DNA of 64,000 nt from Escherichia coli (GTDB taxonomy: Bacteria > Pseudomonadota > Gammaproteobacteria > Enterobacterales > Enterobacteriaceae). Made by a program: the position numbers. This document shows positions 4,001-10,000 of this stretch, in pieces. Positions within the stretch are counted from its first letter, which is position 1. Every line of letters begins with the position of its first letter. The stretch is from NCBI RefSeq assembly GCF_002854065.1, contig NZ_CP024147.1. One strand, 5' to 3'.

Positions 4001-7000
4001 GCGGCAACGGTGGCGGTGATTCAGGACGCCCTAAACTCTTGTGGCTTACCGGCGGGTGCCGTGCAGGCGATTGATAATCCTGACCGTGCGCTGGTCAGTG
4101 AAATGCTGCGTATGGATAAATACATCGACATGCTGATCCCGCGTGGTGGCGCTGGTCTGCATAAACTGTGCCGCGAACAGTCGACGATCCCGGTGATCAC
4201 AGGTGGTATAGGCGTATGCCATATTTATGTTGATGAAAGTGCAGAGATCGCTGAAGCCCTGAAAGTAATCGTCAACGCGAAAACCCAGCGTCCGAGCACA
4301 TGTAATACGGTTGAAACGTTGCTGGTAAATAAAAACATCGCCGATAGCTTCCTGCCCGCATTAAGCAAACAAATGGCGGAAAGCGGCGTGACATTACACG
4401 CAGATGCAGCTGCGCTGACACAGTTGCAAGCAGGCCCCGCGAAGGTGGTGGCGGTTAAAGCGGAAGAGTATGACGATGAGTTTCTGTCATTAGATTTGAA
4501 CGTCAAAATCGTCAGCGATCTTGACGATGCCATCGCCCATATTCGTGAACACGGCACACAACACTCCGATGCGATCCTGACCCGCGATATGCGCAACGCC
4601 CAGCGTTTTGTTAACGAAGTGGATTCGTCCGCTGTTTACGTTAACGCCTCTACGCGTTTTACCGACGGCGGCCAGTTTGGACTGGGTGCGGAAGTGGCGG
4701 TAAGCACACAAAAACTCCACGCGCGTGGCCCAATGGGGCTGGAAGCACTGACCACTTACAAGTGGATCGGCATTGGTGATTACACCATTCGTGCGTAAAT
4801 AAAACCGGGTGATGCAAAAGTAGCCATTTGATTCACAAGGCCATTGACGCATCGCCCGGTTAGTTTTAACCTTGTCCACCGTGATTCACGTTCGTGAACA
4901 TGTCCTTTCAGGGCCGATATAGCTCAGTTGGTAGAGCAGCGCATTCGTAATGCGAAGGTCGTAGGTTCGACTCCTATTATCGGCACCATTTAAATCAATA
5001 AGTTACCTCGCATTTAAGTAAACTACGTTCTCCTCTTGTGCCGTATTTGTGCCATTGCGACTTATAATCGCATCGATTTTGCTCGCGTGCTCGGTGAGAT
5101 GCCCGGCTGAAAGGTGGGCGTATCTTTGAACCATTTCGAGAGTTTCCCATCCTCCCATCTCTTTAAGCGCAAGAAGAGAGACACCGGACTGAACCAGCCA
5201 GCTTGCCCAGGTATGCCTCAGGTCATGGAAGCGGAAGTTGCTAATGCCTGCCCGCTTTAACGCTCCCTTCCATGCCTTGTTGCTGTCGGTTCTCATCTTC
5301 CTTACCGCTGCTGTTTTTGTTCCGTCGCTTCGGTAGGCAGGTTTGGTGTGGACAAATACCCATCTCTTATGGAGCCCCTGCTGTTTTCTTAATATCTGGC
5401 ATGCGGTTTCGTTAAGAGGAACTCCGATCGCATTGCCAGCTTTTGTTTCATCAGGGTGCATCCATGCCATTTTCTTATCCAGATCGACCTGTGACCACTC
5501 AAGGTCTGTAACGTTGGAACGGCGAAGGCCTGTCGTGATTGCAAACATGACCACAGGGAAGAAATGAGGAGCAATTTCTGCAAACAGGCGCTTCGATTCC
5601 TCCTCTGTAAGCCATCTGATTCGTCCATTCTTAACGCGTGGTGTTGATATTTTGGGCGTCCTGTCAAGCCATCCCCATTCAACAGCCATATTGAGAATAG
5701 CGCGAAGTATTGCCAGATGCCGCGTCTTCGTTCCTTTGCTTGCCAGCTTTGGTTTATACTCCGGCACTGGCTTGCCAAGCCGCAAACACCTGTCCCGGCT
5801 CATCTCCCAGTTCAGGCGATGGCGGCGGTTTTCCATCCCGTCTACCGCCTCCATTATTTTTTCTGTTGTTATGTCAGAGAGAATGGTTTCTCTGAAGTGC
5901 AACATCCAGAACGATATAATGCTCTTGTCATCATCAATGGACTTCTTATCCGATTTCTCACGCAGCCACCGTATGCAGGCTTCCTTGAATAGCTTTTTCG
6001 GTGATTCCCCGAGATTTTTTACTCTCCACGCTTCTGCTTTCAGACGATCGTGAAGTTCTTGCGCTTGCCTTTTGTCCGATGTTTCAAGAGAGCGTCTAAC
6101 TCTTGATCCATCTGGCGCGACGAAATCGCAGTGCCACGTGCCACCGCGTAGTTTGATTGACATGCTTTAACCTCCTGCACATCAACCGCATTCACCGCGC
6201 TATTGTGTCTCACAGACTTAAGCGCCGCAATGCAGTCTGACTTGCAAATGCGATATGGGCTTTTAGGTTTATCTGGATTTATCTTTGCGGCCTGAAGTCG
6301 TCCACTTCGTATCCACTGTGTGATAGTGCCTTTGTCTACCTTCAGATACGACGCAGCTTCTTCACGAGTGAAGATTTCTTCTTCCACCTGGAATCTCCAT
6401 TTGTTGGATTGACATGATTGCGGTAGGTCTGGATATCTTGAGAAATGAACAGGCCTCATCGAGTGTGAGGCTGTATGATTCCATGGTTACCTCTGCTTTT
6501 TGAACGCATGTCACGTAACTTCTTAATGTGTTCTGCCGTTTCGATCTCTTCTGCTATCCGATCTGCATCAGCTTTATTCACAGGTTCAAAGTCATGATTA
6601 AAGCGGAACATGCTGGCGATACATGTTCTGCCTTTACGGATGTAGTGAACTTTGTTGTGGGTAGAACGCAGGATTTTGCAGGGAGTGCCGTGGTGGTCAA
6701 CGTACCAGGTGTTAGGAAAAATGATTCTGAACATTTTTACACCTCAGTTGGACGATGTTGAAATTTGCTGCTTTGAGGCCATCACAATCCCCATTGTTTG
6801 TTCTTAAGTTCGATCTCCTCCTGGCAACTTGCACAAGTCCGACAACCCTGAACGGCCAGGCGTCTTCGTTCATCTATGGGATCGCCACACTCACAACAAT
6901 GAGTGGCAGATATAACCTGGTGGTTCAGACGACGCATTTTTATTGCTGTATTGCGCTGTAATTCTTCGATTTCTGATGCTGAATCAATGATGTCTGCCAT

Positions 7001-10000
7001 CTTCCATTAATCCCTGAATTGTTGGTTAATACGCTTGAGGGTGAATGCGAATAATAAAAAAGGAGCCTGTAGCTCCCTGATGATTTTGCTTTTCATGTTC
7101 ATCGCTCCTTAAAGACGCCGTTTAACATGCCGATCGCCAGGCTTAAATGAGTCGGTGTGAATCCCATCAGCGTTACCGTTTCGCGGTGCTTCTTCAGTAC
7201 GCTACGGCAAATGTCATCGACGTTTTTATCCGGAAACTGCTGTCTGGCTTTTTTGATTTCAGAATTAGCCTGACGGGCTATGCTGCGAAGGGCGTTTTCC
7301 TGCTGAGGTGTCATTGAACAAGTCCCATGTCGGCAAGCATAAGCACACAGAATATGAAGCCCGCTGCCAGAAAAATGCATTCCGTGGTTGTCATGCAGCC
7401 TCCCGACGGGCAAGAATCCTTGAGCCGAACGCCATCAACTCTCCACGATCAACGGTCGTAAAGTGGCAGTGTGTACGGGGGTATGGGTGCCAGATAATGA
7501 GCATCGAGCCTTTATTATTTCCACTGACGGGTTTCCCGGTGAGTGGGTTAATAAATACCAGTCGTCCTGCCGTGATGAATCTGACCTCACTGGCGGTTTG
7601 TATCGCTTCATGAAACCATCCGACAGATGTGTCAGCAGGCAATAACATTACACATCCCACACTACTGAATTTGTTTTCAGTGGCTGCCTTTTTCACAAAA
7701 GGGGAAATATTGCTGTATGGTGGATTCAACCAGACATAACCAGAGGCATATCCCATTGCTTCAGGCCATGAAGTGGTTAATGTGTTCTGCTCCTGTGAGA
7801 TAAAAAGCCGACATAGTCGGTTTTTTTCGCTGGCTGCAGCATCAAGTTGAAAAACGAACTCTGCATTAAGCGCAGCAAAAATCTCTGGTGGTGTTCGCCA
7901 GCTGTCGCGATGTTCGGCAGGAGTATTGCTTCCGGTGAAATCAGTCATACAGCCCCCCCCGTTTATTATTTATCTCCTCAGCCAGCCGCTGTGCTTTCAG
8001 TGGATTTCTGATAACAGAAAGGCCGGGAAATACCCAGCCTCGCTTTGTAACGGAGTAGATGAAAGTGATCGCGCCTACCCGGATATTATCGCGAGGATGC
8101 TTCATCGCCATTGCTCCCCAAATACAAAACCAATTTCAGCCAGTGCCTCGTCCATTTTTTCGATGAACTCCGGCACCATCTCGTCAAAATTCGCCATGTA
8201 CTTTTCATCCCGCTCAACCACGACATAATGCAGGCCTTCACGCTTCATGCGCGGGTCATAGTTGGCAAAGTACCAGGCATCTTTTCGCGTCACCCACATG
8301 CTGTACTGCACCTGGGCCATGTAAGCCGACTTTATGGCCTCGAAACCACCGAGCCGGAACTTCATGAAATCCCGGGAGGTAAACGGGCATTTCAGCTCAA
8401 GGCCATTGCCGTCACTGCATAAACCATCGGGAGAGCAGGCGGTGCGCATACTTTCGTCGCGATAGATGATCGGGGATTCAGTAACATTCACGCCGGAAGT
8501 GAATTCAAACAGAGTTCTGGCGTCGTTCTCGTACTGTTTTCCCCATGCCAGCGCCTTAGCATTAACTTCCGGAGCCACACCGGTGCAAACCTCAGCCAGC
8601 AGGGTGTGGAAGTAGGACATTTTCATGTCAGGCCACTTCTTTCCTGAGCGGGGCTTTGCTATCACGTTGTGAACTTCTGAAGCGGTGATGACGCCGAGCC
8701 GTAATTTGTGCCATGCGTCATCCCCCTGTTCGACAGCTCTTACGTCGATCCCGGTACGCTGCAGTATAATGTCCGGTGTCATGCTGCCACCTTCTGCTCA
8801 GTGGCTTTCTGTTTCAGGAATCCAAGAGCTTTCACTGCTTCGGCCTGTGTCAGTTCTGACGATGCGCGAATGTCGCGGCGAAATATCTGGGAACAGAGCG
8901 GCAATAAGTCGTCATCCCATGTTTTATCCAGGGCGATCAGCAGAGTGTTAATCTCCTGCATGGTTTCATCGTTAACCGGAGTGATGTCGCGTTCTGGCTG
9001 ACGTTCTGCAGTGTATGCAGTATTTTCGACAATGCGCTCGGCTTCATCCTTGTCATAGATACCAGCAAATCCGAAGGCCAGACGGGCACACTGAATCATG
9101 GCTTTATGCCGTAACATCCGTTTGGGATGCGACTGCCACGGCCCCGTGATTTCTCTGCCTTCGCGAGTTTTGAATGGTTCGCGGCGGCATTCATCCATCC
9201 ATTCGGTAACGCAGATCGGATGATTACGGTCCTTGCGGTAAATCCGGCATGTACAGGATTCATTGTCCTGCTCAAAGTCCATGCCATCAAACTGCTGGTT
9301 TTCATTGATGATGCGGGACCAGCCATCAACGCCCACCACCGGAACGATGCCGTTCTGCTTATCAGGGAAGGCGTAAATTTCTTTCGTCCACGGATTAAGG
9401 CCGTACTGGTTGGCGACGATCAACAATGCGATGAACTGCGCATCGCTGGCATCACCTTTAAATGCCGTCTGGCGAAGAGTGGTGATCAGTTCCTGTGGGT
9501 CGACAGAATCCATGCCGACACGTTCAGCCAGCTTCCCAGCCAGCGTTGCGAGTGCTGTACTCATCCGTTTTATACCTCTGAATCAATATCAACCTGGTGG
9601 TGAGCAATGGTTTCAACCATGTACCGGATGTGTTCTGCCATGCGCTCCTGAAACTCAACATCGTCATCGAACGCACGGGTAATGGCTTTTTTGCTGACCC
9701 CGTGGCGTTGCAAATGATCGATGCATAGCGATTCAAACAGGTGCTGGGGCAGGCCTTTTTCCATGTCGTCTGCCAGTTCTGCCTCTTTCTCTTCACGGGC
9801 GATCTGCTGGTAGTGACGCGCCCAGCTCTGAGCCTCAAGACGATCCTGAATGTAATAAGCGTTCATGGCTGAACTCCTGAAAATGGCTGTGAAAATATCG
9901 CCCGCGAAATGCCAGGCTGATTAGGAAAACAGGAAAGGGGATTAGTGATTCAGGCCGTTGCCTCGTCCGTCGAGAAAAACTTCCACGAGCAAATCACGGG

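Follow-up and report, generated by a model that had tools for sequence, protein, structure and literature searches.

A probable exo-xis accessory block next to xis in an Escherichia coli prophage remnant at thrW

Introduction

What do the small leftward genes beside xis in a lambdoid prophage of Escherichia coli encode, and do they act on the transcription or the defences of the host? The question is raised by a 64,000-nucleotide (nt) stretch of contig NZ_CP024147.1 (assembly GCF_002854065.1), referred to here as the window over its whole length, in which an original prediction made from the sequence alone described an uncharacterised three-gene early block at 6456–7413, two hypothetical genes flanking a TraR/DksA zinc-finger gene, and offered it as a candidate anti-defence or transcription-modulating module. 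Our analysis indicates that the block, at window positions 6456–7394 on the minus strand, is very probably that half of the lambdoid exo-xis region which lies nearer to xis. As such, it would group several small accessory genes at the distal end of the pL operon, the early operon read leftward. The exo-xis region is a named, very common and previously described accessory region of lambda-like phages, reportedly under study since about 2002. The finding is therefore largely ordinary, a known, very common and partly characterised phage accessory region. The description 'uncharacterised' does not hold, as there is a literature on orf61, on orf73 and on a predicted promoter and terminator of the region (PMC4195576, PMC6213356, PMC8614690), and structure models for the exo-xis proteins have been published (PMC8614690).

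Results

The block lies between exo and a Xis-like gene on the strand of the pL operon, along which the order is exo, orf60a, Dam, an open reading frame (ORF) of 27 amino acids (aa), Orf61, a 31-aa ORF, Orf73, DUF4222, xis and int. From the conserved set orf60a–orf63–orf61–orf73–ea22, the genes orf60a, orf61 and orf73 are present, with Dam and DUF4222 in place of orf63 and ea22. RefSeq annotates the same three leftward genes that had been predicted here, and RefSeq genomes identical at this locus list them as WP_000488407.1 (DUF4222), WP_000763373.1 (TraR/DksA regulator) and WP_000188870.1 (hypothetical). Their placing between xis and the methyltransferase gene also stands, with a Xis-like helix-turn-helix (HTH) gene and a Dam-family methyltransferase gene (Pfam PF05869) on either side, and the proposed reading as an early-operon set of accessory genes towards int and xis in a lambdoid prophage is borne out. 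The upper limit and the gene count required revision: position 7413 is the TTG start of an extended ORF that overlaps the methyltransferase gene, the supported gene being 7099–7314, and there are five ORFs rather than three once those of 27 aa (7311–7394) and 31 aa (7007–7102) are added.

The orf61–orf73 segment is shared closely with well-known phages. Window positions 6805–7394, which span orf73 without its last codons, the 31-aa ORF, orf61 and the 27-aa ORF, have 95–97% DNA identity to lambda, 434, VT2-Sakai, EDL933-Stx/933W and Phi24B. The lambda counterpart sits between ea22 and orf63, and the maps of lambda, 434 and Phi24B have the same gene order. DNA of the block has matches in 279 phage records with megablast and in 345 with blastn. 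Among about 200 related loci compared for synteny, a sample in which some contigs occur twice, Orf61 and Orf73 are adjacent in every locus, the gene after Orf73 is DUF4222 in about 90 and Ea22 in a further 50 or so, about 21 have Dam instead of Orf63, and the exact architecture of the window recurs in at least 15. Each exact protein sequence is present on about 1000 or more contigs, and the 27-aa ORF is annotated as 'hypothetical protein' on 981.

The position held by orf63 in lambda is filled precisely by the Dam methyltransferase gene, whose junctions coincide with gene boundaries. Other genomes carry fusions of Orf61 to DUF4222 with loss of Orf73, of Orf61 to the 31-aa ORF, and of an MT-A70 methyltransferase to the DUF4222 C-terminus. 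The fusions in P0017 ('ybl17'), P0131 and P0221 show frequent rearrangement inside the block; as informative domain architectures, P0017 'ybl17', P0221, P0009 and P0131 were rejected as deletion or frameshift artefacts.

The zinc-finger gene (6782–7000, minus strand) encodes a 72-aa orthologue of Orf73, with 89% identity to Orf73 of lambda and Phi24B and 32% to TraR of the F plasmid. Its product has the N-terminal DxxDxA motif (D3-I-I-D6-S-A8), of the type carried on a single helix rather than a coiled coil, and the CxxC-17-CxxC zinc finger (C35/C38 and C56/C59) that define the TraR subfamily, and E44..R47-L48 is conserved. The C4 zinc finger noticed in the original prediction is confirmed by Pfam PF01258 (zf-dskA_traR), at 35.2 bits against a gathering cut-off of 24.9, while the score with NCBIfam TIGR02419 (C4_traR_proteo), 54.6 bits, falls narrowly below the curated cut-off of 59.7. 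Sequence matches in the PDB are the TraR chains 5w1s_M and 6n57_M; within the family, proteins of the lambda Orf73 type form a divergent branch.

In lambda, Orf73 competes with DksA for RNA polymerase (RNAP) and, without guanosine tetraphosphate (ppGpp), inhibits rrnB P1, with a half-maximal inhibitory concentration of about 50 nM, and rpsT P2; D3 and D6 are required for promoter inhibition (PMC9239242). The lambda protein also inhibits ribosomal-protein promoters, slows host growth and increases phage yield 3–4 fold, with no effect on the lambda lytic promoters tested (PMC9239242). This mechanism is our best inference for the window gene. Like TraR, Orf73 would insert its acidic N-terminal helix (D3xxD6xA8) into the secondary channel of RNAP, and the shutdown of ribosomal RNA and ribosomal-protein promoters in the absence of ppGpp would divert host transcription towards the production of more phage. 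Orthology gives good support to a transcription-modulating role for this gene, and for this gene only within the block.

Orf61 (7099–7314, minus strand) is intact in the window and matches PHROG 303 (E 4.7e-36, profile positions 23–93). Three starts are in use for it, namely the lambda ATG inside orf63, the Phi24B start that gives 93 aa (window 7380) and the start at 7314 that gives 71 aa, the last being the 216-nt orf61 called by both PGAP and the phage 434 annotation. The frames were compared by codon-position tests in 107–111 distinct homologous sequences. An anchor of DNA within the gene was used to retrieve them, which keeps the upstream region free of selection bias. In the frame of the 27-aa hydrophobic micro-ORF MTTTECIFLAAGFIFCVLMLADMGLVQ (7311–7394, minus strand), synonymous and nonsynonymous changes number 15 and 8, and first, second and third codon positions changed 4, 4 and 15 times (third-position excess, P 0.0017). 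The frame of the Orf61 'N-terminal extension' gives 4 and 11, with 10, 2 and 3 changes by position (P 0.92), and the 71-aa Orf61 body gives 21 and 21, with 10, 6 and 26 (P 1.4e-4). When only variants found in at least two sequences are counted, P is 0.0005 for the 27-aa ORF and 1.3e-5 for the Orf61 body. Polymorphisms that are common leave the 27-mer unchanged, and in the extension frame they fall at first codon positions and replace residues; an identical peptide is encoded in 98 of the 111 distinct sequences for the 27-mer and in 60 of them for the extension.

The upstream boundary is consistent with the same gene model. Homology between Dam-type and orf63-type phages starts exactly at the ATG of the 27-aa ORF (7394), so a gene boundary is expected there. 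This ATG follows a GGGAGG Shine-Dalgarno sequence, the Orf61 ATG having only a weak one, and ATGA overlaps occur at both ends of the micro-ORF, between the methyltransferase stop and its ATG and between its stop and the Orf61 ATG. Both the 27-aa and the 31-aa ORF are identical in phage lambda. With moderate confidence, we propose that Orf61 is a 71-aa protein and that a separate, conserved and translationally coupled hydrophobic peptide of 27 aa is encoded upstream of it; the stop/start overlaps suggest that the coupling would operate by termination and reinitiation. The TTG-extended 104-aa ORF (to 7413) was rejected on the nonsynonymous first-position changes in its frame and the homology boundary at 7394, and the 93-aa start in the manner of Phi24B (7380) on the same two grounds. 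A 10:0 synonymous count for Orf61 was set aside as biased, the loci having been selected for 100% protein identity.

This model bears on published work, in which orf61 deletion phenotypes have been described and the over-expressed 93-aa protein was insoluble or aggregated (PMC6213356). If the model is right, those deletions took out two genes. The insoluble protein may have borne a non-native N-terminus, and a 71-aa Orf61 with a separate 27-aa ORF could explain the aggregation of the 93-aa construct.

The AlphaFold2 model of Orf61 has three helices (residues 3–26, 32–49 and 54–64), with a predicted local distance difference test score of 89.4. A homeodomain fold, proposed for Phi24B Orf61, was not recovered in structural comparison. 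The invariant C-terminal segment GFTPTHLSLAIGMLNGV (residues 51–67; 7114–7164) resembles the ankyrin consensus GxTPLHLAAxxGH; an ankyrin repeat at GFTPTHLSLAIGMLNG was rejected, being a single sub-threshold motif match to DARPins and ankyrins, and the likeness is probably a chance resemblance between helix-turn-helix motifs. In the lambda reference (lambda positions 3140–3325), one extra A in an A6 run (window 7249–7254) truncates the protein, which then ends in '...EIKKSQTAVSG*'; lambda Orf61 had already been recognised as truncated by Donaldson. This A6 run and the A5 run at 7223–7227 are sites of frameshifts, alone or paired with a compensating shift, in many database 'variants' of Orf61, which marks the A-runs as hot spots for insertions and deletions. 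The 'divergent' homologues at 51–53% identity were rejected as frameshift variants rather than true divergence.

Downstream, the 31-aa ORF (7007–7102, minus strand) has a strong AAGGAG Shine-Dalgarno sequence and an ATGA overlap with the Orf61 stop, and its end lies 6 nt before the orf73 ATG. The phage 434 annotation has a 29-aa version with its own ribosome-binding site. No codon-position signature was found for this ORF (P 0.25–0.7). A review reports a 31-aa peptide, 'orf2313', from ribosome profiling of this conserved region (PMC8614690), and Orf73 is 'Orf2310' of the same lambda study (PMC9239242); the 31-aa ORF is probably 'orf2313', an identity that rests on secondary citations.

Inside this ORF, a terminator scan detects an intrinsic-terminator-like hairpin at 7078–7060 (RNA fold z-score −2.4), followed by a U-run to 7051. 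It is overlapped by a predicted sigma-70 promoter with the −35 element TCATCA at 7083–7078 and the −10 element TTTTATTAT at 7059–7051, the two features together covering 7051–7083 on the minus strand. Identical sequences were predicted as terminator t2 and promoter p1 of lambda and Phi24B by Bloch et al. 2014, together with a terminator t1 and expression data (PMC4195576). Translation of the 31-aa ORF may open the t2 hairpin and deliver ribosomes to orf73, and passage through t2 may extend transcription and translation into orf73, DUF4222, xis and int. A second terminator-like hairpin, with a 9-bp stem and 6 GC pairs, lies at 8019–8041 on the minus strand in orf60a/DUF1317 and has the same sequence as the predicted 't1' of lambda and Phi24B (PMC4195576).

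The DUF4222-family gene (6456–6734, minus strand) closes the exo-xis series ahead of xis. Its 92-aa product scores 69.4 bits with Pfam PF13973 (cut-off 27; E 2e-19) and also matches PHROG 285. DUF4222 takes this place beside xis in many lambdoid phages including Phi24B, whose vb_24B_1c, adjoining xis, is a member of the family (E 2e-15). The family occurs in 117 phage records and, among those listed with a position, always within about 1–3 kb of int/xis. Phage 21, SfI and many lambda-like isolates are among the carriers, as are Shiga toxin (Stx) phages, whose copies have about 36% identity. The subfamily is confined to Enterobacteriaceae, and a HMMER search recovered only 42 representatives, all enterobacterial, with no deeper relatives.

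The only studied relative is RgdR (ECs1581), a regulator of enterohaemorrhagic E. coli (EHEC), which matches PF13973 at 82 bits and is 24% identical to the window protein. RgdR activates LEE1, represses motility and raises Congo-red binding, its DNA binding is weak and non-specific, and its RGD motif is important for activation of the type III secretion system (PMC3378721). The modelled DUF4222 protein is small and basic, with a Tudor/SH3-like barrel and a C-terminal helix, and its predicted fold resembles the C-terminal domain (CTD) of UvrD/PcrA, the RID of CarD/Mfd and the KOW domain of NusG/Spt5. Eukaryotic Tudor/SH3 domains and FeoA score almost equally with the model, and a fold search of BFVD returned only unnamed small barrels. 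We regard the likeness to Tudor-like RNAP binders as a fold resemblance between models and structures, not as evidence of family membership.

The surroundings of the block are those of a degraded prophage, integrated at thrW beside proA and occupying window positions 4913–18391. The tRNA-Thr gene thrW (4913–4988) adjoins int (5003–6163, minus strand). The Xis-like HTH_17 gene (6040–6459, minus strand; Pfam PF12728, E 1.1e-8), just outside the block, is given here in its 139-aa ATG form, which overlaps int by about 124 nt and is annotated as an HTH or DNA-binding protein. On the other side, and likewise outside the block, lie the Dam-family N6-adenine methyltransferase gene (7391–7948, minus strand; PF05869, E 4.9e-56), then orf60a/DUF1317 on the minus strand between it and exo, and exo itself (8102–8782, minus strand). 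The part from int to kil (about 4970–10196) is followed by an IS1 copy (10197–10964), at which homology to an intact relative ends, and by a nin–Q segment (about 11627–13750); further IS1 copies lie at 15789–16556 and 17624–18391. The prophage is a remnant that lacks the immunity, N, replication, lysis and structural genes, and also pL, which was lost to an IS1-associated deletion.

The xis region (window 6040–6514) is itself mosaic. A 40-aa ORF (MESYSLTLDEACSFLKISRPTA...) represents the 5' part of an HTH_17 excisionase gene of P22 type. A second Xis-like HTH_17 ORF, this one complete, comes next in a different frame. Positions 6420–6501 match the eaC/xis junction of P22-like phages at 91–96%, and the last approximately 15 codons of DUF4222 belong to this P22-like segment. 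Between the first IS1 and nin, a 662-bp segment (10965–11626) is absent from the closest genome (CUWW06); two ORFs occur here, one of 102 aa (11023–11331) whose product has a lipoprotein-like signal (MKILMMIVAVSVLAGC...) and one of 67 aa (11490–11693).

Discussion

As a working hypothesis, DUF4222 would be an adaptor that binds protein or nucleic acid and alters host transcription, possibly via RNAP. It may bind RNAP or a nucleoid or regulatory protein instead of a specific DNA site, and may be a pleiotropic co-factor of host transcription like RgdR. The phenotypes of RgdR resemble H-NS antagonism or the action of DksA/ppGpp. In a more specific form, the DUF4222 proteins of the window and of Phi24B (vb_24B_1c), and RgdR itself, would be Tudor-like adaptors on the beta lobe of RNAP, as are the UvrD/PcrA CTD and CarD. 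Such docking, if true, would explain the DNA-sequence-independent effects of RgdR on LEE, motility and curli. Taken as a whole, the proposal that the end of the early operon encodes several independent RNAP-aimed factors, with DUF4222 docking on the beta lobe, and that 'orf61' is mis-annotated and comprises a 71-aa three-helix protein and a 27-aa membrane peptide to which its translation is coupled, is improbable in our estimate.

Several observations count against the exo-xis reading set out in the Results. A mechanism has been demonstrated for Orf73 only, and only in lambda, and the eight differing residues of the window Orf73 cluster at the C-terminus, mostly in its helix, a region that contacts lobe Si1 of beta in TraR. 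The published phenotypes of orf73 conflict between two laboratories, one reporting a pro-lysogenic effect with reduced yield and the other a raised yield (PMC9239242). For DUF4222, the RGD tripeptide is absent from the window protein, in which the aligned residues are P7-N8-T9; single-sequence and profile searches of the PDB gave no sequence link to solved structures; and the modelled barrel is a very common one, with RNAP-binding Tudor domains only 0.2 Z units above FeoA. The micro-ORF test comprises about 23 variant codons in closely related sequences. The 31-aa ORF appears to be free of purifying selection, so that any role it has would lie in its being translated. Finally, expression of the block is uncertain here, because the remnant lacks pL; an internal promoter, for example the predicted p1, would have to drive it, unless it arose by read-through. 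Lack of expression, one of the refuting conditions of the original prediction, may thus apply to this copy.

A rival explanation is that the block consists of silent relics of a prophage that is dead in this genome, functionless cargo in decay. The loss of pL, N and the immunity, replication, lysis and structural genes, and the three IS1 copies, are what such decay would leave, and we consider this possible, although on balance doubtful: none of the three main genes or the two micro-ORFs is disrupted, and each is identical to a widespread allele; p1 is predicted upstream of orf73; and, as RgdR illustrates, a DUF4222 gene can affect the host even from a defective element. Far less probable is a 'bin' function, by which the block would stop initiation of host replication or perturb division in early lytic growth through Orf61 or DUF4222. 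Earlier work, as recounted in a later paper, assigned inhibition of host replication initiation to orf73 and adjoining genes (PMC9239242), but the lambda genes named there (ea22, ea8.5 and orf55) are absent from the window. Many Orf61 copies are labelled 'cell division protein ZapA' at NCBI, a name that finds no support: the Pfam match to ZapA is weak (E 0.017) and below threshold, and Orf61 does not show a ZapA-like fold. We consider this explanation very unlikely.

Unlikelier still is that Orf61, DUF4222 or both, beside the Dam methyltransferase, neutralise host restriction or abortive infection or exclude other phages. The setting is typical of anti-defence genes, which these resemble in being small, early, non-essential, mosaic and next to a DNA methyltransferase gene. 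Nevertheless, the anti-defence, anti-restriction or superinfection-exclusion role first proposed gained no positive evidence. The genes have no similarity to known anti-restriction or defence-related families: the matches in PADLOC, Pfam, NCBIfam and PHROG, searched without a dedicated anti-defence library, include no catalogued anti-defence or defence family, PADLOC, Pfam and NCBIfam gave no informative match, and the one PADLOC match was discarded as a spurious hit to the zinc finger. When orf61 or orf73 is deleted, the published effects, in a K-12 host poor in defences, are on lysogenisation, on the timing of induction and on yield (PMC6213356, PMC9239242), and the only DUF4222 protein studied alters host gene expression. 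Moreover, Orf61–Orf73 is nearly invariant at the DNA identities given above, whereas anti-defence genes usually evolve fast.

An exo-xis block with a TraR-like Orf73 remains the reading we prefer, and it may be of some use for work on lambdoid and Stx phages, through the Orf61 gene model, a positionally conserved DUF4222 and a testable mechanism for it. The revised Orf61/micro-ORF model and the link between DUF4222, RgdR and Tudor-like folds are modest, testable by-products. Through the RgdR family, DUF4222 links a phage early function to the regulation of type III secretion, and the Tudor-like model supplies a concrete hypothesis, RNAP or nucleoid-protein binding, for how it might act.

Comparison with known systems places each part of the block. 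TraR and lambda Orf73 (PDB 5W1S, 6N57) share with the window protein a length of 72–73 aa, the DxxDxA helix, CxxC-17-CxxC and ExxR(L/K); window and lambda Orf73 have six cysteines and TraR four, and eight substitutions separate the window protein from that of lambda, six of them within the last 11 residues. RgdR and the window DUF4222 protein are both basic, of about 90–100 aa, with a barrel and a basic C-terminal helix in the models, and both genes belong to the early region of their mobile element, the rgdR gene upstream of a primase gene in a satellite element (OI-51, a phage-inducible chromosomal island of EHEC O157:H7) and the window gene next to xis in a lambdoid prophage. UvrD/PcrA, the CarD/Mfd RID and the NusG KOW domain are more distant, with 2–11% sequence identity to DUF4222 and no profile-level similarity. 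The closest counterparts are the exo-xis regions of lambda, Phi24B and 933W, which have in common with the window the exo-xis position, the orf61–orf73 segment, the 27-aa and 31-aa ORFs, t2 and p1. These phages have orf63 where the window has the Dam methyltransferase gene, and a single DUF4222 gene in the window replaces Ea22, Ea8.5 and Orf55 of the lambda-type region; the C-terminal allele of the window Orf73 differs from the lambda/Phi24B type, and Orf61, frameshifted in lambda, is intact in the window.

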